64,000 bases of DNA, from the NCBI GenBank assembly GCA_965645245.1, contig OZ287078.1:558001-622000 (forward strand), given 5' to 3'. Both the position numbers and the translations under genes were made by a program. Numbering within the stretch: position 1 is the stretch's first letter; the number at the start of each line of letters is the position of its first letter. Below the pieces are notes generated by a model, which was not told the DNA's origin, made no database searches, and worked only from the letters and a program-made list of their open reading frames with translations. Origin of the DNA: Massalongia carnosa. Taxonomy: Eukaryota. Below, one piece after another: positions 4,717-64,000 of the stretch.

Positions 4717-5068
4717 GATCGGGTCTGATTCGACGCGTGGGGAGTCTCGGAAGCTAACCTGTCTGCTCAGGTGAAGGCATGTAGAAATCAATTAAGTCGC
4801 ACGAACTGAGCGACGACCCATTGAGTTGAAAGCGAATCCCGTTTTTTCAAATGAATGATGAGATGTGCTAGCACTTGGGAAAATCCGCAACATGATATCA
4901 ACGACGTCTCCTTTTCCCCGCCCGGGTTTCATCTGCAATTAAGATTATGGTGCCCAAAAAAAAACAAAAAGAAAAAGAAAACGAAATGCCAACCAATAAG
5001 AAAGAAAAAAACATCTGTTGTAGACCGTTTGTTTTATTTTTTTTTTTAAAAAAAGGAAAAATCAAATA

Positions 5069-6863
5069 ACGTCTTAGCCACCACCCATTCGGGCCAGCCA
5101 CCCAATCGGGCCACCCCCCTCGAAATCTAGTAGCTGAATATTAATCTTTTCCTTCCAATCCACCACCATCACTCCTTTATCGATAAACTATATACAAAAT
5201 GCCTAAAAACATAGCCGTACATGACTCTGCTACCAGAATACAGTTGGCTATTGAAGAAATACGCAAAAACCCGGGCATTTCGCAGCGGGAGATAGCGCGC
5301 ATTTACGGAGTTCCCCGATCGACCTTACAGGCCCGTCTTCGAGGCAGACGGCAAAAACCTCTCATGAGGCCACTCAAAGACTATCAGTAGAAGAAGAACA
5401 GGGCTTGATCACGTGGATAGATCGGATGACTGCATGAGGTTGGCCACCTAGTATTCAACATCTTGAGGACATGATCAAAAGTCTGCTAGAAGCAAAAGGG
5501 GACTCAAAACCCCTAGGACATCATTGATATAAAAACTTCATGAATAGACATCCTCAATTCAGAACTAAATTTAAAAGAAACTTGGATCAATTCAGAAAAG
5601 ACGCAAGTCATCCCAAAATCCTGAAGGAATGATTTGAACTGTACATGATCACTCGAGCAAAGTATGGAGTCGCAGATGAAGATATTTACAATATGAATGA
5701 AAAGGGTTTTGCCATGGGCATTGCGGATAGTTCTAAAGTGATAGTCAAGAGGGAAACAATCTCATTCAATGTGCATTCAGGGAATAGGGACTGAATCTCT
5801 TTAATCGAATGCATATCCTCTCGCGGGACAGTTCTTCCTGTCTATATCATTTTCCAGGATAATCAGGTTCACAAAGATTGATTAGAGGTCATTGCTGATT
5901 CTTTGATCACTCTGCAAGTCAGTCCTAATGATTGAACGAATGCAGAGATAGGTTTTCATTGATTAGAACATGTCTTTCATCCGCAGACAAAACGTACACA
6001 GAGGATTTATAGAATGTTGATTGTGAATGATCACGAAAGTCATATATTCATGAACTTTATTAAGTTCTGCGATCAGAAGAAAATCTTAATTCTTTGTTTG
6101 TCATCTCATTCTACTCATCTATTGCAGCCATTAAATGTGAATGTTTTTGACCCGCTATCTAAGGCTTATAAGACGCTTGTTTCTGCGCGATCTCGTTACG
6201 GGGGCCGTAAATATCTCGAAATTGGAATTCCTACACCTTATTCAGGAGGCTAGATAGCAAGCTATGACATCCATCAATATCATGAATGCATGGCGAGAGG
6301 CAGGTTTTATTCCATACAATCTCGAGCATGTTTTAGGCAAATTGCCTAAACCTATCATTCCTTCACCTCGCGACATCTTCATCACTATCCTCACAACGAA
6401 CAAACGCATTCAGATAGCTAGCGATGCTTTGTTAACCCGTGTAACTTCATCTCTCCGCGCGCATGTTGAATTGCTTCAAACAATCGCATTGAATGCCGTG
6501 ACTGACAGAGTTATTCTACGAAATATCAATCAGGAACTAGTTGAAAAACAGGCTCAGCGACGCCAAAAGGCGTCTAGAAAGGGGTGTGATAAAGCGAGGA
6601 TGCTAACTGTGAGTGAGGGGCTGGCTAAAAATCGAAGAGAAACAGCAAAAAGAGGAGGCATTAGCCAGAGAAAACGAGCGATATCATGCTTTAAATGGTA
6701 AAGTGAAGTTCGCAAAGGCCGTCTGGAAAGAAATGCGTATGGATAGTGATATTTTTTAGTTAATTTTGGGGATGGTAGAAGCATCGTGGTGATGTTGTTT
6801 TCCTTTTGGTGGAGGGAGGATAACTAGTTGGCCAGGATATTTTTGATGGGGTGGCTAATACGT
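5069..6863 (+). mobile_element. Degenerate Fot1/pogo-like (Tc1-mariner superfamily, DDE_1) DNA transposon
   Basis: Imperfect TIRs ACGTCTTAGCCACC (5069) and GGTGGCTAATACGT (ending 6863), flanked by TA at 5067-5068 and 6864-6865. Internal transposase remains. Confidence 0.9.
5199..6745 (+). pseudogene. Inactivated Fot1-type transposase (HTH_psq/CENP-B HTH + DDE_1)
   Basis: HTH ISQREIARIYGVPRSTLQARLRG. Mutated catalytic motifs YNMNEKGF, LIVNDHESH, HSTHLLQPLNVNVF. Seven in-frame TGA stops and frameshifts near 5355, 6205 and 6640. Confidence 0.9.
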
Positions 6864-7195
6864 TACCAAAAAGCAAGGGGTGGGGTTCCCAATAAAATGC
6901 CGTTACATGCATACATATTAGTTTATCGGTTCAGTGAGTGCGTGAGCATGTAACAAATCTTCCAAGAGGAAATGTTGAGGGAAAACGGTGTTACATCCAT
7001 AGCATTACGGAAATGGCAGCATGTTGTTAGCTAGCGCCTCGGGGGGAAGGTTGAATTTGAACTTGAATTTAATAGATATATGTACTTCGTATGGAAGAAC
7101 ACTTGAACCCCCCCCCCCCTCGATAAAAAAAAAAAAAGAGAGAGAGAATTGCAGTAAACAAACCCCCACCCCCCTTACTTACCCCTTACCCCTTC

Positions 7196-49625: not shown

Positions 49626-52403
49626 ATGTCTGATATTAGTGACGATACAACTACAACCCGCCCCGACCCTGGCGAGACAGAGTCAGTATTTGAGCTTCCT
49701 GGAGCATGTGATATCGACGTTCCTGAACGTATTACGCGTGGCAGAAAGCGTACGGTTGGTTCAGCAGAGCTTGGGAATGAAGCTTCAAGAGTATTGATCC
49801 ATATCCTTTATTTAATCAAGCTTATATATTAATATATGGCAGAGGTCTCCATCCCAGTCAGCCCTGAGCTTTTCTCGACGTTCCCCTGCACCCTCCACGA
49901 CTTCCCAAGCTACGGAGCGTCCCCATATCATCCTGAGCGGCACTATATACTCTGAGAACGACAGGAACGCTCCTGGTAACCATTCTAGCAGCCTTTCTAG
50001 GCCGTCACCTATAACCTCTATTGAAGGCAGGGTTATTGGTGGCCGGTTTTCGTCTCCTACAAGTGGAATAGCTTCAAAGAGAGCTAGAGCGAGCCGTAGT
50101 TGGATATGGGATTGGGGCACCAAGGCAGAGAGGGAGGGCAAGGCCTATTGGGTGTGTAACAAATGTAAAGTACCAGATTTATACTTATTTGCCATGTTTG
50201 CTATGAAAATTTGTATAGAACTCAGTGTAATTCCGCCCATTTTATATGTACCGAACCATCGAGTTGTCATTTTGACATGTACTATACATTTGTCCAATAT
50301 CTATTTAATTTATATTAACGATTATTAAAGCTAATTAACTACAGGTGTTGCAGACGGTTCTAATACTGAGTATATGATCACAAACGGCACTGCTTCATGT
50401 GGAGAGCACTTACGAAAGGACCATAATCTTGTTCCACCTAAGGAAGCAGCTGCTAGGGCATCTATCTCTGTTGTTGAACATCTTCAACAAGGGGTAGTAG
50501 TTGCTCCTTTTAGTCCAGAAGTCTTTCGACAAAAGCTCTTACGATTTCTTTGTATTTGTCATATTCCTTTTGCCATTGTAGAGCAGCGTGCTTTTCGAGA
50601 CCTGCTTTTATATTCAAGTCCGTATTTACGAGGCAATGATACACTCCCCAAGTCGGGCAATTCCATTAAAGCTGCACTATTAGAGATATTTCTAGCTTGT
50701 CAACTTGTATTGATTCAGTTATTAGTGGAAAGCAACTGCCAAGTCCATATATCCTTTGACTTATGGTCGTCTCCTAATAATTTCTCTATGCTAGGTCTTT
50801 GCTGTCACTTTATTGATCGTTCCTGGCAAGCACGTACAGTGATTCTTGGCATGAAGCGTCTTATTGGACCCCATAGTGGAGAGAATATGTCAAAATTAAT
50901 AGTCAAGGCCCTTGAAGTTTATAAACTAGGGGGTAGGCTCGGCTACTGTGTTTTGGATAATGCCGGTGATAATGACACTTGCTTGAGAGCAGTCGAGGAA
51001 CATCTCCTTTTGCAGGGAGTTAGGTGGGACGCTGATACTCACCGACTACGTTGTTTCGGCCATATCGTTAATCTCGTGGCAACTGCATTCTTAGAGAACA
51101 AACCTACGAAGCAAGCGCGTCAACGACTCCCAGGGGAGCCCAAGGCAGTCTGGAAACGTCCAATAGATGCTATTACGAAGCTTCATGTGATTATTGTCTT
51201 TATAATGGCCACCGCTCAAAGGATCGAGCAGTTTGAAGGGATTAATAAGACGATTCAAGACCCTCTCTTGCATCCAATTAAAGAGCAAATCACTAGATGG
51301 TTTTCAACTCTTAATATGCTTCGACGGGCCATTCAAATCAAAGACTCTCTTGATCTATTCGTCCATCGTAACTCTGAGCAATCATTTACTGAGAAGACTC
51401 TTTTTGATTCGCAAATGACGGTTGACGATTGGAACTACGCCAAGGAAGTGATTGCTTTTATGGAACCACTCGAAGAGCTTATGATGAGTTTACAAGGAAG
51501 AGAGATGTCTGGTATATTATATAAGCTTTAAATAACTCGATAATCACTAAGCTTTTAGTAGGAAATAATGGTTACGCTCACCAAGTGCTCCCTTCATATG
51601 ATTTAATAAAAAAGGGGATGGAAGAGCAGCTATTTGGCTTTGAGCTTGATGAAGTCGATCAGTCAAACCCACAGGAACTAGCTAGTAAACGACTGGAACT
51701 GAACATTATTAACGCCATGCAAAAGCTAGAGAAATACCGTCAACTACTCACTTCCCCTATTTATTTAGTGGCCGTCGTCCTGATGCCCTGGTATAAGTGG
51801 ACTTATTTTGAGGATAGTATGAGTGCTAGTGACCTTGCTCAAGCTCGTACGAAGGTCCAAAAACTTTGGCAAGACTTATATGCAAATATAGAGGTTGCTG
51901 AAGATGATACACCGTCACCTGGAAGTCAAAATAATTAGGTATATTAACACTTATTAATATAAAAACACGGCTAACTATATTTGTAGCACGCTAAGCCCTC
52001 CCTTTTGAAGGAACACCTTAAAAGGAGTACAAACAAAGCTAAATCCACTGTCAGAGATGAATATAGACGGTACTGTAATACAGAACCAGTTGATGAAGAT
52101 GGTTGCGGGTTCTCTGGCCACTTAGAATGGTGGAAAGCTCACGAGCCTCACTATCCTAGACTAGCTCAAATGGCCAGGGATATATTCTCTGTGCCTGGCA
52201 TGAGTGCAGAGGTCGAACGCTTGTTCTCTTCGTCCAAATTGATGATTCCAGATCATAGGAATCGTCTAAAACCCGACTTTATTGAGGCAGGAGAGTGTAT
52301 TAGAAGCTGGGCCATGGGTGGGCTAGTTCTAGGAGACTATTTCGAGTACTTACCAGCGTACCAGAAGGCAGGAGAGAAGTTCGGGGATCAAGGGAACCCA
52401 TAG
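49626..52403 (+). CDS. hAT transposase, 5 exons (introns 49791-49842, 50165-50344, 51512-51561, 51939-51986), with an in-frame TAG at 51936-51938
   Basis: BED zinc finger SWIW...WVCNKC...HLRKDH. Catalytic SFDLWS and VLDNA, RCFGHIVNL (CxxH), TRWFS, and the dimerisation domain WWK....YPRLAQMARDIFSVPGMSAEVERLFS. Confidence 0.88.
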
Positions 52404-54049: not shown

Positions 54050-56018
54050 CTCGTATTCACCATTTGCAACACACCCCATTTGCAACACGCTAGTTAGTAA
54101 GCACCCGCATTAAAATCCGTTAACTCTACATTTCTCCCTCTTCTATCTGCATTATCAACTCAATTAAGTCATTATGAACTCAGCTGACGAACTGCCCAAA
54201 GAGGAGCGCATTCAGCTTGCTATTGCTGCTTATAGAGAGTCATTTAATGACTGGGAAGCCGGTCCCAAAGCTTTCGAAGACAAGCCATCCGTTCGAAAAA
54301 TCGCCCGTCAACATGGTATCGTTCATTCCACCCTTACTAGACGACTTGCAGAAACGAAAACTCATAAAGAAGCTGCTCTACTGCAGCAGCGATTACTTCC
54401 GGAGGAGGAATCAGCTCTCGTGGACTGGACAATACAAATGGAGGCATGGGGCTGGCCTCCTCGTGTAACACAGCTTCGCTTTATGGCGTTAGAAATGCTG
54501 ATAAAGCGAGACGATCGCAATGATTTGGGTATCAATTGGGTGAGCAAATTTTTATCTCGTCATAAAGAGTTGGATACTGTGTTTTGTCAGGCATTGGACA
54601 AGGAAAGAGCTTTAATGCATAATGCGGAAATGCTCAATCAATGGTTTCAGCTGTACGCAAAGAATTTTAATCAATATAAATTCAATGAGGAGGACTGCTA
54701 CAATATGGATGAAAACGGATTTGCTATGGGACTAGTGGGCAAGCTCAGAGTAATTTGCTCTAAGCATGATCGACCAGCATTATTGACTCAATGCGGTAAT
54801 AGAGAATGGGTTTCTCTGATCGAATGTGTATCTGCTGATGGAGCGGTTCTTAAACCATGGGTTATTTTCAAAGGTAAACAACAGCAAAAGGCCTGGCGTT
54901 CATTTATCAAAGAAGGTGGTCACATTGCTCTCAGTGAGAATGGATGGACAAACAATGAAATCGGTCTGGATTGGTTAAAGCAGTGTTTTGAACCGGAAAC
55001 ACGAAGCCGTTTAAAAGGTCGCTATCGTCTTCTTATTCTCGATGGACATGCTTCTCAACTTACTTCAGAAGCGATTCAGTTTTGTAAGGAAAAAGACATC
55101 ATTCTTTTATGTATTCCTTCTCATTCAACGGACATGCTTCAGCCTTTAGACGTTGGTGTTTTTCATCCATTGTCTACGGCCTATCGGGTGGAACTGGAGA
55201 AGCATACTAGACTAGGAGTTGGTTATTCAATTGATAAATCAGACTTTCTGCTTCTTTATCAAAAGGCTCGAAACAGAGCTTTATCCACTCAAAATATTCA
55301 GCATGCCTAGTCCAAAAGTGGGTTGTTTCCATTCAATCCTGCTATAGTTCTTCAAAAACTTCCTAGTCCACCTCATCCTTCTACGCCTCCGAAAATGACA
55401 GTAACGAGTTCAAATGATGTCTCTGTTTCAGTAGCATTTACTCCAGCAAATGCTGATCAAGTCAATAATTTGATGGAGCAATTGACTGACAATGACTCAA
55501 ATCAATTGGTTCTCGACAAGCTTGGAAAGGCCTGCAAATCCGCGTTGGCAAGCAGTCATCTTCTCAGGATTACAAACGAAGAACTTCTTGTAGCTGCTCG
55601 TCGTAAACACGAGAGAGCAAATCGAGCGAAGGGACATTAAGGTACTGCTAGAATCATGAATTCGGAGGTTCTCGAGGAACGAGAGCAAAAACTAGCTAGC
55701 AAAGAAAAGGAAAAAATTGATAAACAAATGACCAAAGAGTTCAATCTTTTGGTGAAATCTTTCAATAAACTCAGTCCCGATTTATTCATGGAGTCAAAAC
55801 AACGCAGTGTCATCAAGAAAGCTCTTCAAAGGCCTCCGATGCTTCCTCCGCCTTCGGATTCAATCATACTTCTCTCGCCCAGTCCTATCAAGAAGCGATC
55901 GAGAGGAACTTCATTGCCAAAAAAGACTTTCATGATTGAGCCGGAGGCGAATAGAATGAAAGAAATGCGCATCAGTCGAAGTGGTAGGACAATAAAGCCG
56001 CCGCAAAGGCTTGATTAA
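54050..56018 (+). mobile_element. Second Fot1/pogo-like DDE_1 transposon; left end present, right TIR not found
   Basis: TA at 54048-54049, then a terminus with the direct repeat CCATTTGCAACAC x2 (54060, 54076). Transposase from 54174. Confidence 0.85.
54174..56018 (+). pseudogene. Fot1-type transposase interrupted by two in-frame stops (TAG 55308-55310, TAA 55638-55640)
   Basis: HTH SVRKIARQHGIVHSTLTRR, AWGWPP, YNMDENGF, LLILDGH, QPLDVGVF. The three annotated ORFs share one frame; QHA*SKSGLFPFNP corresponds to the usual AW..SG..PFNP. Confidence 0.88.
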
Positions 56019-56484
56019 AGAACTAGAAACTCGCCTCGTACGCATGATCCTCCTCCTCCTAGCCAATAAAAAGTCTCTGTACGTATAAACAGTCCTTTCA
56101 CATGTTCATTTGCCCTGAGTTTATCTGTCAAATGATGTTGATGGGACTTCAGGACCCATCCTAAAAAAACTCCCTCCGATCCAACACAAGCAACGCCTTC
56201 TTGATCAACAGTGGTTATATTGGTCTTCATACAGTTACACACCTATTATATCCCCCCTGCTTTGCTACTCGAAAAAGTTCGCTCACCTCTTCAAGTTATA
56301 AGGGCATTGTCATTATGATTGATTGATTCTATAGATACTCTGTTACTACTTTTGCGTGTACTTATCTATTTCACGACATTTTGAATAACAATCGACAACC
56401 ATAATCTAGGCTACTATTATTGATTTGACTCTCACATCTATCTATTCTCTCAACACGTCTTCCCTTGTAACGCGTACCGACGTT

Positions 56485-58155
56485 ATGTCGACGCCGAGTA
56501 GGCGGCGTGGCGACATCGCTGCGCGGGCGCTACAAGAGAAGAAAAGCAGCGCAAACCTTACGAGCCGAGCAGTACGCGCAATAGCTGACATTGAAAAACA
56601 GCTACGCGACAAATCCAGAGAGATAATTAAGGGATCAGAGATCTTGACACTGCTACAAGAAGCAAAGGAGTTAATTCACTTTCTCGCGCTTCCGGAGAGC
56701 GAGCTACGCAATGATATGCAGCTGATTCAACAGCAATTAACGCGCATAGAAGCGAACACGACCAAGACGACGGCAGCAGTCAAGAGCTACGCCGCGGTAG
56801 CGTCCGCGGGAAGTAGCAGAAACGACAGCAACACGACGGCGACGCGCAACTCCGTAATGGAGCAGCAACGACAGCTGGAGGAGATAAAGAGAAGAAAGTC
56901 CGTTCTGATCAAGTTCAGGAACGACGCAGAGAAAGTCGGAATCAAAGCCTTGTCGAACAAGGCACTTATGGACAGAATCAAGACTATCGAGGAGAAGACC
57001 GGCGATGTACTGGCGGTGCGACGTCTCCCAAGCGGCGACTTAGAGCTGCTGGCGTGCACGATGGAAGCTAAGGCTAGAATGGAGATGGATCAACAGCTAC
57101 ATAAAGGGCTTGCGGACTCAGCGTATATAGTGCGACGCACATTCGCTGTGTTAGCGCATGGGGTGCGCGTAGACAGCGTCGACACAGTTAACGCACAAGC
57201 TACCATCAAGAGTCTAGAGAAACAGAATGAGCAGCTTCATCCGGGACTGCAGATCTGCCGCATTGCATGGACCAAAAGGGCAGTTTCAGAAGCCAAGATT
57301 CACTCCTCGCTAATAGTTGAAGTAGCCACCGCAGAGACGGCAAACAGACTGATTAAAGAGGGTCTTCTGCAGGATTACTCGCATAGAATATGTGAGTACT
57401 TCGATAAGAACTGTCGTCTAAAACAGTGCTTTCACTGCCAGAAGTACGGACATACGGGCACCGCATGCAAGAACGCCCTTCGATGCGCAGGCTGCGCTCA
57501 AGGACATCGCTCGCAAGCATGCAAAGCGCCTGCGGATCGACGCAAGTGCGCCGTGTGCGGCGGGAATCATCCGGCGTGGTCTCACCTCTGCCCCGTCCGA
57601 AAAGAGGAGAAGGAGCGTCTGAATGGCATCTGGAAGAACCGACCAACGTGGCATGTCGAGACGGAGGCGGTTGTCCTTCCTCGACAAAGTCAGACAGTAG
57701 AACGACGCAATAACGCCGGCGACACGACGTCTCATACACCTGCGCCAACACGTCATCAGGCAGTGCGTGAGCGAAGCCGCTCGCCAACCCCCGAGGCCGA
57801 GGAGCCGAACGAGTTCACTCAGGACGGCTCCACGATTATGAGCCTCGACATTAATACAGTCACCAACAGCTTTCCGGCTCTCCCCTCTACACACGGCAAG
57901 AGGGCACACTCGCAGGGACCTGGAGAAGGCTCCTCGCCATCTCCTACTAGGCGCAGAGCCAGCGTGTCGGTTGTACCTGACTCACAGCCGGCCTCGTCTT
58001 CTCATAGGTCTGACAGCGCCCTTGCAGTCCTTCGTTACCCCATGCCTCCTCCGGCGCCGAAGGCGCATTCGCAGACGCAGCCACAGCCCAAGCCGAAGCG
58101 CGGCCGCCCGCTGCTTCACAGAATCAGCGGCAAAGTCTCTCGAAATACCCAGTAA
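56485..58155 (+). CDS. LINE ORF1 (gag-like nucleic-acid chaperone)
   Basis: First ATG at 56485. Coiled-coil N-terminus, RRLPSGDL, AHGV, and three Cys/His knuckles CFHCQKYGHTGTAC, CAGCAQGHRSQAC, CAVCGGNHPAWSHLC. Confidence 0.93.
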   Translation: MSTPSRRRGDIAARALQEKKSSANLTSRAVRAIADIEKQLRDKSREIIKGSEILTLLQEAKELIHFLALPESELRNDMQLIQQQLTRIEANTTKTTAAVKSYAAVASAGSSRNDSNTTATRNSVMEQQRQLEEIKRRKSVLIKFRNDAEKVGIKALSNKALMDRIKTIEEKTGDVLAVRRLPSGDLELLACTMEAKARMEMDQQLHKGLADSAYIVRRTFAVLAHGVRVDSVDTVNAQATIKSLEKQNEQLHPGLQICRIAWTKRAVSEAKIHSSLIVEVATAETANRLIKEGLLQDYSHRICEYFDKNCRLKQCFHCQKYGHTGTACKNALRCAGCAQGHRSQACKAPADRRKCAVCGGNHPAWSHLCPVRKEEKERLNGIWKNRPTWHVETEAVVLPRQSQTVERRNNAGDTTSHTPAPTRHQAVRERSRSPTPEAEEPNEFTQDGSTIMSLDINTVTNSFPALPSTHGKRAHSQGPGEGSSPSPTRRRASVSVVPDSQPASSSHRSDSALAVLRYPMPPPAPKAHSQTQPQPKPKRGRPLLHRISGKVSRNTQ

Positions 58156-61100
58156 TGGCGGGACAAACATCTCTTTCAATATTACAGTATAACATCAGAA
58201 AGAGCAAGAACGGGGTCATGACCCCTCTACTGGCGGACAAGAGAATAGAGGAGTATGACGTCTTAGCCATTCAGGAACCATGGCGCAACCCCAGCATTTG
58301 CACGTCGCACAATCCGTTCAATTCCGGCTTTCATCTTGCGTTTATGTCGAATGAGAATGTACGTGCGTGTTTCTATATTAATAAAAGATTGGATGTCAAT
58401 TCTTGGGCTGTGGACTTCCTCACACCGGACGTGTGCACAATGAGACTAAGAATATCTGCGAGTAATGAGCCACGATACATCAATATACATAACGTCTACA
58501 GTCAATCACCCGACTCGCATTCTTCTCGCCAGCTACTCGAAAGCGTGGAGGCGGTGAGACGAAAGATTCATGAGCGGGATGAAGAGGAACACATCTTGCT
58601 GGGAGACTTTAATCTGCATCACCCTCTGTGGAGTGGCCCCTCCAGGCCTACACAACATCAAGCGGCCGACCAGCTTCTCGACGTCGTTCGTGCGGCGTCT
58701 ATACAGCTCACTCTACCTAGTGGCTCTGTCACTTGGGAGGCACGCAGATCCACGAGCACGATAGACTTAGTGTTCATGACCGACTCCCTGAGACACAGTC
58801 TGCTGCACTGTCACACCCGTCCGGAGATGAACCAATCGTCCGATCACATACCCGTCTCTACCAAGCTGACGCTAGAGGTGGAGCTGAGCGTGGAACGTCG
58901 CAAGAGAGCATGGAAGCGAGCCGACGAAGAAAATCTGGCGAAAAGTCTTCGTCTACCTGTAGTCACGGAGTGGCCGCGTACCCCGCAAGCCATAGACGAC
59001 TTAGCGAATCGACTACAGTCCGCCATTATTGACGCGATAAATGAGACCATTCCCTGGACGGCTCCCTGCCCCGTCTCCAAACCCTTCTGGAACGAGCGTT
59101 GCGCTGTCGCTGTGGCGGAGACTCGACGTCGAAGACGCGAGTGGACGAGGTGGAAGACAGAGGCAACGTGGCGCAGGTATCTCAAATCGGCGGACGAAAA
59201 GAAGAAGATCATCACCAAGGAGAAGAAGCTCGACTTCAGAAGAACCTTAGCAGAGATGACGTCTGCGTCCGAAGGCATATGGCGTCTTGCTCGATGGGCT
59301 CGTACGCGCAGTCACTTACCGCGAGACATTCCCAAGGTGCCCGATCTGACGCACACGCTTGCGGACGGCACAGCAGTCACTGCGTCCACATTCGACGAAA
59401 AGACGTCTCTTCTCTCTGACATGTTCTTCCCCAATGCAACCGCGGCAGACCTCAGCGACACGACGACGTATCGCTACCCTCCCGCTGTCGCAGAAACGGA
59501 GTCTCTTATCACAGGCGAGGAGATAGAGGGAGCAATCAAGCGTTGTAAGCCGGACTCTGCTCCGGGCCCCGACGGAATACCGAATAGAATACTCAAGCTT
59601 CTGATCAAGTCGATACTGCCCACGTTGGTCCTTCTGTTTCGCGCCTGCGCAGAGCAGGGGTATCACCCACTCTGCTTTCGCGAGGCTCACACTATTGCAA
59701 TCAAGAAGCCGAACAAGCCGAACTACACTCTCGCTAAGGCCTATAGACCTATCGCGCTTCTGAATACGCTTGGGAAGGTCTTGGAATCGATCATAGCTAA
59801 ACGCATCGCCGCTGTTGCGGAGACCCACAATCTGCTTCCTGAGTCTCAGATGGGACGACGACGACAAAGATCCTGTGAAACGGCACTTGAACTCCTCACC
59901 GAACAGATACACACGGTGTGGAACATGAGGTCAGACAAAGTGGCCACGCTTTTGAGCATTGATGTGGCCGGTGCCTTTGATCACATCTCGGCGGAGAGAA
60001 TGCTGCACAATCTGCGCAAGAGAAAAATTCCTGAATGGATCGTAGCATGGGTCGGCAGCTTTTTACAGCAAAGAAGGTCCACACTGACAATCGGCGGTCA
60101 GACGTCTTCGATGCGCCTTGTTCATGCCGGTATACCGCAGGGGTCGCCAGTGTCGCCCATTCTCTACATTTTTTACAACGCAGATATTTTGGAGGAGCTA
60201 GAGCGATCTCGACTCAAAGGCACCGCGTTGGGGTTTATTGACGACATCAATATACTGGCATACGGCACCTCGACTGCGAGTAACTGTCGAGCTTTAGAAC
60301 GTGCTCACGAGATGTGCGAGCTGTGGGCTAGACGTCATGGAGCGCACTTCGCGCCTGCTAAATACGAGCTCCTACATCTCGCCAGAAATGATCGTCGCTT
60401 CGACATGACGGCTGCCGTGTGCATAGGAGGCGTGGACAAGACGCCTTCGCCGTCGGTGCGAGTGCTTGGAATTCAGATCGACTCCAAGCTTAAATGGGGC
60501 CCTCATCTAAAGTTCATACAGGGCAAAATGGCTACACAGACCTTGGCATTATCCAGGCTTACGGCTTCTACGTGGGGAGCGTGCTTTACGAAGGCGAGAC
60601 ACGTTTATAGCGCCGTCGTGCGACGGGCGATTACCTTCGGCTCTACCGTCTGGCATTCGCCATATGGCCGTCCCGACGGCACGCAGAGGATCGACAAACA
60701 GCTCGGTGACATACAGCGAGAGTGTCTGCGAGTGATAAGCGGAGGATTTCGCGCTACTCCGCAAATCATCATCGAAGCCGAAACTCACGTTTCTCCAATT
60801 CAGCTGCATCTAGCTCACTTGCAGGCGAAGGCACGACGACGTCTTAAAGAACATGAACACGATCAACGCATCTCCGCTTTCTGTGAGAAGATCAAGCGCA
60901 AGCTGACTGCCTCGCGCGGTAGACGACGGCGCGCCCTCAACGCTACGCCGGCTCAGCGTAAGCGTGACTGGTATACGAGGCAGATTGCTCGAGTCCGGCC
61001 TGCTGACATGATAGAGGACACTCCGACGGACAAAGGGCTAGCCAAGATCTTCAACAATCAGTGGAAACAGACCTGGAGCGCGTATCAGGCGGCTCATCAG

Positions 61101-61490
61101 CGTCATCCCTGCGCTGCGCTTACTGAGGGTCTTTCGATAAAGAGACTGGGATTACATAAGAACTTCAGCAAATCCGAAAGCAGCCTCATCATTCAAATGC
61201 GTACTGAGCGTATTGGCTTGGCGGATTATCTCTTCTCTCGTCGAGTTCCCACGTTCGCTTCGCCGGCGTGTAGCTGTGGATGGGCACGCCAGACGCTCAA
61301 GCATGTGCTACTCAGCTGCCCCAGGTTTGTTAACGGCCGAAGCAACATGTGCAGAGACGCCGGAACGACGGATTATCGCCGCCTTCTGACCACCGAAAAG
61401 GGCTTACGAGCCTCCGCTCGCTGGCTTATGCGGACTAATCTACTGACACAGTTTTCGCTAGCTGTAGAGTGTCTTTCTTCCTCCCCCTGA
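58155..61490 (+). CDS. LINE ORF2: AP-endonuclease + reverse transcriptase + C-terminal zinc knuckle (no RNase H seen)
   Basis: ILQYN, AIQEPW, LLGDFNLHHPLW, STIDL, SSDH (APE); APGPDGIPN, YRPIALLNTLGK, DVAGAFD, GIPQGSPVSP, FIDD (RT); CSCG....TLKHVLLSC. Confidence 0.96.
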   Translation: MAGQTSLSILQYNIRKSKNGVMTPLLADKRIEEYDVLAIQEPWRNPSICTSHNPFNSGFHLAFMSNENVRACFYINKRLDVNSWAVDFLTPDVCTMRLRISASNEPRYINIHNVYSQSPDSHSSRQLLESVEAVRRKIHERDEEEHILLGDFNLHHPLWSGPSRPTQHQAADQLLDVVRAASIQLTLPSGSVTWEARRSTSTIDLVFMTDSLRHSLLHCHTRPEMNQSSDHIPVSTKLTLEVELSVERRKRAWKRADEENLAKSLRLPVVTEWPRTPQAIDDLANRLQSAIIDAINETIPWTAPCPVSKPFWNERCAVAVAETRRRRREWTRWKTEATWRRYLKSADEKKKIITKEKKLDFRRTLAEMTSASEGIWRLARWARTRSHLPRDIPKVPDLTHTLADGTAVTASTFDEKTSLLSDMFFPNATAADLSDTTTYRYPPAVAETESLITGEEIEGAIKRCKPDSAPGPDGIPNRILKLLIKSILPTLVLLFRACAEQGYHPLCFREAHTIAIKKPNKPNYTLAKAYRPIALLNTLGKVLESIIAKRIAAVAETHNLLPESQMGRRRQRSCETALELLTEQIHTVWNMRSDKVATLLSIDVAGAFDHISAERMLHNLRKRKIPEWIVAWVGSFLQQRRSTLTIGGQTSSMRLVHAGIPQGSPVSPILYIFYNADILEELERSRLKGTALGFIDDINILAYGTSTASNCRALERAHEMCELWARRHGAHFAPAKYELLHLARNDRRFDMTAAVCIGGVDKTPSPSVRVLGIQIDSKLKWGPHLKFIQGKMATQTLALSRLTASTWGACFTKARHVYSAVVRRAITFGSTVWHSPYGRPDGTQRIDKQLGDIQRECLRVISGGFRATPQIIIEAETHVSPIQLHLAHLQAKARRRLKEHEHDQRISAFCEKIKRKLTASRGRRRRALNATPAQRKRDWYTRQIARVRPADMIEDTPTDKGLAKIFNNQWKQTWSAYQAAHQRHPCAALTEGLSIKRLGLHKNFSKSESSLIIQMRTERIGLADYLFSRRVPTFASPACSCGWARQTLKHVLLSCPRFVNGRSNMCRDAGTTDYRRLLTTEKGLRASARWLMRTNLLTQFSLAVECLSSSP

Positions 61491-64000
61491 CTGTCGCGTA
61501 GTGATAGTCACAAACTCTAGTTATAACAGAGGCAGAAGGTAGTCTCTTGATACGCATGTGTGTCGTAGACGTGGCGCTGGCGAAACGTAGCATTCGCGAA
61601 GTGAGGTCGAGCGATCACGTGTAGGTATACAGATGAAGGTTTTTTCCCCTCGATGAGGGTTTTCCTTCTTTGAAACTTTGATAGCTTTTCTCGCATGGGT
61701 CGGCTGTAGCTGATGTCACAACGAGTATGAATTTAATAATAATAAGGGCATTGTCATGAATATTTTTTGTCGTACCGGTTGTCCTTCCGGACTCGATAAG
61801 GGGGATTTTTTTGACCTACAAGAAATGGTATCTTTTATTAGCGGTCATCAAGAAAAGAAGGAAAGTAGGCACACTATATCACAGCTGTACAGTGACCAGA
61901 ATGTACCGTTGCATCCGCCAAACTGGTAAATAAGGATAGCAATTGCATCTAACACTAGGCTTGTTAGGTTCGACGTGGAGGAACTGCTCTGTATTTCAAA
62001 CATCAAGGAGTATGGCACAGCTTTAGAAAACACTGAAGCAACTTCTCAAGCCTTAAAGACTGTCAACTGGAGGCAGGACACAACGGGATAAGATGTGGAT
62101 ATGAATATATAAATGACGCTAAAATCCTTAAATTGAGAAAAATTATATGCAAGCGCTGAATTTGGAAGCTAGCTCCCACTGGAATTGATGAAAGCAGCGA
62201 TGGTATTATGCGATTGATCTCCCCTCTTTTTGCCCCCATGCATTCCTTTTTCAGGAGCTATGGATAGAGAGTGCGTTGTCCACACGTTCTGATTCATTCT
62301 TTACCTTCTCTTCTTTCGAGCACTGAAATTTGGCAACGAGGACTCCAGTCAAACTTCTGCCCACTATATCGCTGATCAGACTTACGATCAGATTCTTCAA
62401 AGTCGCGCGATTCCTAAGGAGCCGGCTATATTCACCGGCGCCGCGATTCTTCAACGTCGATTCCAATCATCGGGTTTTCGTACCTCTGGCCATACCTTTC
62501 GTATACCCCGCCGGTGAACTCAATCCTGCAGAGGCACTGGTCTTGTCTAGAGTTATCGGGATGTGCCAGCGGAGGTATGCAATAAAGAGGATACAGAGCG
62601 TATATACGCTGTTAAGATGTGGGCGGTTTCGGTCATATTAATAGCTATAATGTGGAAGGATCCTGATAATTCCCATGACCATAGAGGTTGATAAGAGAAA
62701 ATTCGGATTTCTGCGTTCAGTATTATCATGAAAGAGATACACGGTTGAGTAGAGACATCATCCTGGTATCCCCATGGGGTGTTCTGAAAACCAACGGTTG
62801 AATGCGCGCTAGACCTGATCCAACTATTAGTTCACGGGCAAGGGCAATGATGGTGTCATACCAGTGGAGTTGCAAGATCTCACCCGACGATGTGAGGAGT
62901 CTTAAGCTTAGTAGAGTCGAGGAAGATATTTCTCATTTCTCCTTTTACACAGCTCATAATCTCTAAGTTTATAAAAAGCGCATAGTAGCTGAGATGGATT
63001 CATTATTACTAGCTTTTCGGGTTATGATCTTGGGATCTTACTACTTCCATTCGTTATATATTTCGGCGGTACTTATTGGTCTATAATGTGTATAATTCTA
63101 AGTTCGTTACCAAAGAAACTAGCTAGCCAACGCATGCAAAGAAGTACGTTCAATACCTTGTAGCATTGCGTGGAGGTCTTTCCGTAGTTACATTCAAATG
63201 ACAAAAGATCTCGAACCAAACAACAGCTAATGGAAATCATTTGAAAACTGCCTTGAGACTCCCCGACAATAGTCTTCTTTAAGCCATCTTACCATGACCA
63301 AGTACTCACAGTTTCGCTCCAGAACGATCACTTCCTTCGACTTCAATATGCCCCTTTACTAGCTTATTCGCTAGAAATATATACTTACGAAACAAGCTCA
63401 ATGTAAACCTCATACCGAGCATAAATCTGGTGAAACAGGCAGCTCAGTCATATTCAGCTAGTAGCAGAAAATTCTAGTGGTTATTCTTCCTTCATTATGA
63501 GAGATCCTCTTTTACTGTGTAGTCGGAGACGCAACCGATTGAAACCTAGGGGTTGTTCACCCCCCCCCAAGCTAACCATTATTAGCTAGCTTCCGCATTT
63601 AGCAAATTTGAATTAGTCATGCGAACATCAATTTTTTCTTGACTGTTTACCTTTCAAATGAACTTCATTGAACCTCATTCAAGCAATTTAGACCTCGTCA
63701 ATTGCTGTCTTTCTATATACGGGATTTTTACTGTGATTATGGGGCTCAACGAAGAAGAAATCCCGAGTGTTTCAGACAAATCGCCAATCTCAGCGAAGCA
63801 GCATAAAATAAATCACAAAAGAGGTGTCCAAAACATCTTGATAGTCTACTTCCTCTAAATATACCCCTATTCGTGTTATCAACAGGCCTTTTGTTCCATT
63901 AATTGAAGACATTGCTCGAAGTCCTCTGGAATTATTTTAGTTGTTTATAACAAGGTAACATTGTCGCATCATCGCATATTATACCAATATCAAAGCACAC

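Follow-up and report, generated by a model that had tools for sequence, protein, structure and literature searches.

The window analyzed here, a stretch of 64,000 nucleotides from contig OZ287078.1 of Massalongia carnosa, contains a copy of a pogo/Fot1-type DNA transposon (Tc1/mariner superfamily; positions 5069 to 6863, plus strand) in which the first C of CpC has been densely converted to T on both strands. With a probability of roughly 0.7, we attribute this pattern to a defense of the repeat-induced point mutation (RIP) type, in which a RID-family enzyme would change the first C of CpC, and in particular of CpCpA, to T on both strands of repeats in rare bursts. The process lacks the CpA target that counts among the membership features of RIP, and is otherwise RIP-like in its working. 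Among named relatives, the MMM1 protein encoded in the window is closest to that of Lobaria immixta (77%), with other Lecanoromycetes next, which marks the host as a lichen-forming fungus, probably of the Peltigerales.

Mutation context in the window copy

Taking the majority of 22 loci as the reference, we counted 85 substitutions in the window copy, 68 of which were C>T. These affected 57 of 221 CpC sites, as compared to 8 of 210 CpT, 2 of 236 CpA and 1 of 127 CpG sites (CpC 57/221 versus other C sites 11/573; Fisher p=6e-24). In segment 5430-6170, 42 of 94 CpC sites were mutated, with 2/114 for CpA, 4/86 for CpT, 0/24 for CpG and six other substitutions. All 57 CpC>TpC changes lie between 5362 and 6612, such that the ends of the element are spared, and they are evenly split between the strands (29 plus, 28 minus; 149 and 140 when pooled). 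The first C of the dinucleotide is the target, as seen from the contexts D[C]C (44/156) and C[C]C (13/65) versus C[C]D (1/158). The preferred trinucleotide was CCA, with 30 of 70 sites mutated in the window copy and 164 of 537 in the pool of nine hit copies, whereas the second C of CCA was mutated only once in 70 sites, leaving CpA intact.

The standard RIP indices were negative for this copy (TpA/ApT 0.50; (CpA+TpG)/(ApC+GpT) 1.88), while the CpC index (CC+GG)/(TC+GA), as defined by RIPCAL (PMC2621366), dropped from 0.98 to 0.38. Canonical CpA-directed RIP is thus ruled out as the cause by both the CpA count and the TpA/ApT ratio. A sequence-only reading of the window had suggested a mutator, present now or formerly, that targets repeats at CpC rather than CpA, acts on both strands and goes unnoticed by the standard indices. 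The multi-copy alignment and its context table supported this interpretation. The transitions are derived, strongly enriched at CpC and confined to repeats, where either strand is affected, so that neither of the two outcomes named in that reading as refuting it was obtained.

The element and its damaged transposase gene

The classification as pogo/Fot1 is based on the DDE_1 and helix-turn-helix domains, which were scored on the open relative L013 (Pfam DDE_1, HTH_Tnp_Tc5 and HTH_psq), on terminal inverted repeats and on the duplicated TA target (5067-5068 and 6864-6865). The 3' inverted repeat does not reach the length that it has in the sister copies. A search of the 52 Mb assembly (25 contigs), in which 40 of 102 candidates were scored, gave 100 matches. 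A dozen of these are long copies that are 89-93% identical, and many others are derivatives with internal deletions. Among the latter are many derivatives of family 1, the family of the window copy, that resemble miniature inverted-repeat transposable elements and have an insert of about 170 bp after element position 555 (L023, L024 and L027-L030); no CpC burst was observed in these six loci. Three truncated family-1 copies (L008, L009 and L010) have common flanks, and hence belong to a duplication on contigs C7 and C2 that extends beyond the element.

The transposase open reading frame (ORF; 5199 to approximately 6760, plus strand) is broken by seven TGA stops and by frameshifts near 5352, 6200 and 6627. 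The seven stops, at 5435, 5525, 5630, 5792, 5879, 5933 and 5960 (span 5435 to 5962), are in a single frame, and the alignment of sister copies identified them as Trp codons changed from TGG to TGA, with TGG in the majority of the sisters at each position. They align with Trp in three open relatives (L013, L017 and L026) and in the pogo element at 54 kb, as the sequence-only reading had noted for the latter; the same ORF segment contains two further Trp codons that are intact as TGG. Across the 124 Trp codons scored in family 1, TGA was found 19 times and TAG three times. The presence of TGG in sisters and open relatives rules out both a genetic code in which TGA specifies Trp and an ancestral origin of the altered residues; RIP-mutated pogo elements outside this genome contain TAG or TAA instead. 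The three catalytic Asp codons all read Asn (AAT; 5696, 6026 and 6134, span 5696 to 6136, plus strand), as had been claimed earlier. However, the same CpC context could be assigned only to the codons at 5696 and 6026, since the third, at 6134, is in a CpTpA context.

Bursts in individual copies

We surveyed 170 repeat loci in 12 families (11 pogo families and one long interspersed nuclear element (LINE) family, in which some loci are pieces of one copy); the burst comparison thus covers transposon families only. At a threshold of p<0.001, 20 of the 170 loci were enriched in CpC changes: 4 of 20 in family 1, 15 of 28 in family 5, where the changes are partly inherited, and 1 of 8 in family 6. 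Gains were counted on trees that were built without the CpC sites and that have modest support values. For family 5, 346 CpC gains were mapped to 143 sites, as compared to 293 non-C>T gains at 283 sites; the corresponding numbers for family 1 were 162 CpC gains at 95 sites and 175 non-C>T gains at 173 sites. Since the CpC gains outnumber the CpC sites, identical sites have been hit in parallel in different copies. With the reservation that the trees are modestly supported, these parallel gains rule out a single shared ancestral event.

The bursts were episodic and specific to individual copies. CpC gains on terminal branches were overdispersed (chi2 340, 25 df) in a nearly all-or-none manner, as illustrated by L179 with 40 CpC gains and 12 other changes versus L186 with 3 and 25. 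A single internal branch accounted for 22 CpC gains and one non-C>T change. Seven near-identical loci among its nine descendants have gained only 0-2 further CpC changes each, and the hit copy was therefore re-mobilized afterwards. The outer 200 bases of the elements were spared (8/271 versus 265/1147 CpC sites mutated), a pattern that is compatible with a homology trigger, although not proof of one. By inspection and without statistics, burst status showed no clear pattern with the repeat content of the flanks among 22 copies.

Young repeats have not been affected. For each of 25 young Ty3 loci, about 400 sites were compared to one reference, and 0-5 CpC differences were counted; these loci were chosen as top-scoring matches, which biases the sample toward intact copies. 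Among them are two near-identical copies located 6 kb apart on contig C21, likewise unmutated. Because the young Ty3 repeats are untouched, the mutator looks dormant, and the CpC process seems to be inactive now or very rare in this lineage. The Ty3 elements (L281-L307) have undergone large recent expansions, and have open, unmutated frames of 1283-1474 amino acids.

A second and different signature was observed in 19 of the 170 loci, none of them CpC-enriched, which displayed a moderate excess of CpA>TpA changes, usually together with many transversions (L062, L072, L078, L080, L129, L012, L022 and others). By analogy with Zymoseptoria, this slow signature is probably the product of a Dim2-type mitotic mutator. 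The resemblance to Dim2-dependent mutation argues for a separate activity behind the CpC changes.

Synonymous sites in transposon and host genes

A longer-term footprint was sought at the synonymous third positions of open frames, by scoring C followed by C and G preceded by G. Six open transposable element (TE) frames of this genome, from pogo, LINE and hAT elements, displayed synonymous CpC odds ratios (OR) of 0.09-0.30, as compared to 0.78 and 0.79 for twelve pooled host frames. A measurement of CC/GG depletion in repeats versus genes had been recommended in the sequence-only reading. It is from these ratios, TE frames versus host frames, that the restriction to repeats is seen, indirectly, as the flanks could not be polarized.

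Two of the depleted elements are located in the window. One is a second pogo element (family 2; 54150 to 56200, plus strand, as delimited by the stretch used for searching), for which an open sister copy has kept 4/82 synonymous CpC sites versus 90/226; no CpC burst was found in the 29 loci of this family. The other is a LINE retrotransposon (56390 to 61745, plus strand) in which either strand is depleted (ORF2: 37/141 versus 296/453 for one and 22/85 versus 278/410 for the other). Similar values were obtained for pogo family 4 (2/58 versus 85/222), and the strongest depletion, with an OR of 0.09, was observed for a hAT transposase frame that lies close to the C17 paralogue of RID described below (L170:4381-6160; 2/41 versus 59/124). 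The burst families 1, 5 and 6 displayed no or weak depletion at synonymous CpC sites. The pattern is thus inverse, with depleted families that have no bursts and burst families that have no strong depletion, for which timing and evasion are both options. Adjacent ORFs at 49816-51938 of the window include one of 398 amino acids that by eye is a hAT-like remnant; it had no Pfam hit and no clear CpC depletion.

CpC bias outside this genome

The outside set consisted of 79 pogo loci, of which 64 with an open frame were tested for synonymous CpC depletion and the other 15 were included only in the stop codon tally. The median OR of the 64 loci was 1.05 and none was below 0.3; many were depleted of CpA or CpG instead. 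Four of the eight loci with the lowest CpC ratio had only TGA at their broken Trp codons, whereas canonically RIP-mutated loci had TAG or TAA. In two pairs of copies the majority of the transitions were at CpC (51 of 82 for L206/L210 and 41 of 60 for L207/L238), in contrast to a control pair with the canonical CpA pattern (L209/L216; 61 CpA and 3 CpC of 99 transitions). Overall, a CpC bias is present on five outside contigs, one of which was shown to be lichen-like. The gene adjoining L210 has named relatives exclusively in lichen-forming fungi, at about 50% identity, which places it in a different lichen-like lineage. The preference for A at position +2 was weaker in the CpC-biased outside loci.

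Candidate enzymes

Inspection of RID, DIM-2 and DNMT5 orthologues, as recommended in the sequence-only reading, identified four C5-methyltransferase loci in the genome: a DIM-2-like gene with an open frame and a BAH domain, a gene that we take to be DNMT5-like, and two RID-like genes. A long canonical RID is located on contig C15. The shorter RID-like gene on contig C17 (locus L167, approximately 4750-6460; two introns predicted) encodes a protein that in a quick tree was placed in a separate RID2 clade of 22 sequences (SH-aLRT 96), the sole named member of which is from Heterodermia. All 22 members of this clade have Gln at a catalytic-loop residue that is His in 98 of 100 other sequences, including the RID on C15. 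The C17 paralogue has Val in motif I, where 116 of 118 scored sequences have Asp, and an in-frame TGA ahead of the last motifs, and judged from the assembly it looks like a recent pseudogene. This stop is not itself a mutated Trp codon, since the orthologues have Asn or Thr at the position.

With its distinct catalytic loop, the C17 paralogue is our tentative first choice for the mutator, although it appears to be broken in this genome; the other option is the canonical C15 RID. A more elaborate scenario, which we consider rather speculative, is that some lichen fungi have a dedicated second RID paralogue in which the change from His to Gln in the loop moves the target over by one base, such that the first C of CpCpA is converted instead of the C of CpA. 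Transposon families resident under this regime would have become CpC-poor and escaped. The recent loss of the paralogue in the sequenced lineage would then have turned the defense off and allowed pogo, LINE and Ty3 elements to expand without being mutated.

Mechanism and alternative explanations

In the RIP-type process that we propose, dispersed repeats would be recognized through homologous pairing, probably before meiosis. Rare bursts would then turn the first C of CpC, most efficiently that of CpCpA, into T throughout the repeat interior and on either strand, either by methylation by a RID-family enzyme or by enzyme-assisted deamination. The outcome would be the conversion of TGG to TGA and the removal of catalytic Asp codons. 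Over a long period of action in the lineage, synonymous CpC sites may have been purged from the resident pogo, LINE and hAT families, after which the defense would have become inactive or very rare.

Several observations weigh against this interpretation. The 114 loci of nine other families have no CpC burst although many CpC sites are kept, and some copies of family 2 match the hit copies in their number of private non-C>T changes. A search bias that conceals mutated family-2 copies was not supported, in that a degenerate-motif search for such copies returned 23 matches, none of which was mutated at the two TGG sites of the motif. Strand-polarized patches of mutations are a feature of RIP in Neurospora, but strand-polarized runs were not in excess here (p=0.30; 123 strand switches where 128 were expected), which several rounds of mutation would mask; in one copy, L127, the CpC changes were split 14 to 2 between the strands. 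Neither AT-rich islands nor CC-free relics were found in 228 loci (895 kb), a sample that is mostly TE-centered and does not include centromere-like regions, and only 2 of 1704 windows in these loci had a GC content below 30%. Host genes are themselves weakly depleted of CpC (OR about 0.8), and the SMI1/KNR4 gene at 885-2675 of the window (minus strand) had a combined OR of 0.33, mainly from the sense strand, which may reflect codon-pair bias. Finally, the link between RID2 and CpC is a correlation only, and a RID-like gene outside the RID2 clade also has Gln in the catalytic loop (outside metagenome contig L206, 528-2187, minus strand); this divergent methyltransferase gene is located 1.6 kb from a CpC-biased pogo copy.

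The mutations could alternatively have arisen in vegetative cells, if DIM-2 or a methyltransferase recruited to heterochromatin methylated CpC in silenced transposons and the methylated bases were deaminated without homologous pairing. Dim2 drives mitotic C>T mutations in Zymoseptoria repeats, where CC is the second most methylated CHH context, and a DIM-2-like frame is open in the present genome; nonetheless, more than 98% of the Zymoseptoria C>T changes are at CA, according to the parts of the study that we used (PMC8016269). Such a mitotic mutator is unlikely to explain the CpC changes, since these were gained in an all-or-none and not a clock-like fashion, the flanks of several hit copies are unique, and the slow CpA signature fits DIM-2 better. 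The hit copies could also have acquired their mutations elsewhere, in a different host or lineage, and have arrived through introgression or horizontal transfer in a genome whose own lineage never had the mutator. Such an import would be in line with the confinement of bursts to families that are not CpC-depleted and with the untouched state of the young repeats. We give this very little weight, considering that the hit copies are located at many loci on different contigs, that a hit family-5 copy was re-mobilized into eight loci of this genome, and that the resident LINE, hAT and pogo frames display long-term CpC depletion.

Agents other than a methyltransferase were also considered. A cytidine deaminase of the APOBEC/AID type, or damage to transcribed or single-stranded transposon DNA, would fit the episodic nature of the process and the finding that the changes stay within the interior of the element, a region overlapping the ORF. 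APOBEC3G, however, targets the 3' C of CC on one strand, whereas here the strands were hit equally, the 3' C was spared, and the elements transpose by cut-and-paste without a reverse-transcribed intermediate; this possibility is accordingly improbable. Still harder to reconcile with the data is genome-wide environmental mutagenesis. Lichens are exposed organisms, host genes are weakly CpC-depleted, and SN1 alkylation, which yields GG>GA changes and favors C before a pyrimidine, would suit the context; ultraviolet light damages dipyrimidines including the 3' C of CC, which is the base spared here. Copy specificity largely refutes mutagenesis of this kind, with 45% of the CpC sites changed in one segment of the window copy as compared to 1-3 such hits in sister copies of similar age. 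The 3- to 10-fold stronger depletion of TE frames than of host genes also speaks against it.

Relation to known systems

Like RIP in Neurospora crassa, which depends on RID and DIM-2, the process described here consists of dense C>T changes on both strands of repeated DNA, occurs in copy-specific bursts and inactivates transposons, and RID-like and DIM-2-like genes are both present. Unlike Neurospora RIP, it targets the first C of CpC, best in CCA, leaves CpA intact, produces TGA rather than TAG or TAA, has left no AT-rich islands in the loci examined and is negative for the standard indices. Other non-CpA contexts have been described, namely CpT in Botrytis, Sclerotinia and Magnaporthe, CpG in Tuber and rusts (PMC4352252), and TpCpG in Pucciniomycotina (PMC3318451). 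In the parts of these two papers covered here, the authors tie the lineage-specific context to methyltransferase subfamilies, and transposon lineages depleted of target sites are reported, as in Microbotryum. Both features recall our findings, but CpC is the one dinucleotide that is not listed; the covered parts of PMC4352252 name CpA, CpT and CpG, and the term CpC has 0 occurrences in that paper. The Dim2 mitotic mutator of Zymoseptoria tritici is likewise repeat-restricted and causes C>T changes, but targets CpA in a clock-like manner in the sections used (PMC8016269), in contrast to the episodic CpC bursts.

Among lichen fungi, RIP of transposons has been reported from the Lecanoromycetes Cladonia rangiformis and Xanthoria (PMC12542154, PMC13486527). 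The portions of these papers covered describe extensive AT-rich regions in which RIP was scored from GC content or with RIP-index tools, whereas none were seen in the loci examined here, and in the same portions, as in those of PMC13535494, CpC is unmentioned. The consulted part of PMC12543289 concludes that RIP-like defenses have a CpA preference in common, and in the sections used of PMC2621366, PMC5555474 and PMC5381539, CpC is either one of the categories scored or a minor class. Thus, CpC-dominant RIP is apparently undescribed in the literature searched, with the reservation that the survey of 49 genomes by Clutterbuck (2011), of which we know only in outline that variable contexts were reported, was not covered and could hold such a case. 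As RIP surveys rely on GC content or on CpA/TpA indices, they would count a CpC-directed version as absent, and the distribution of RIP in lichen fungi may have been misread. A natural target shifted by one base, together with a candidate paralogue that has a diagnostic loop residue, makes target choice testable by complementation in Neurospora, and the synonymous-site footprint provides a means of telling long-resident transposon families from newcomers.
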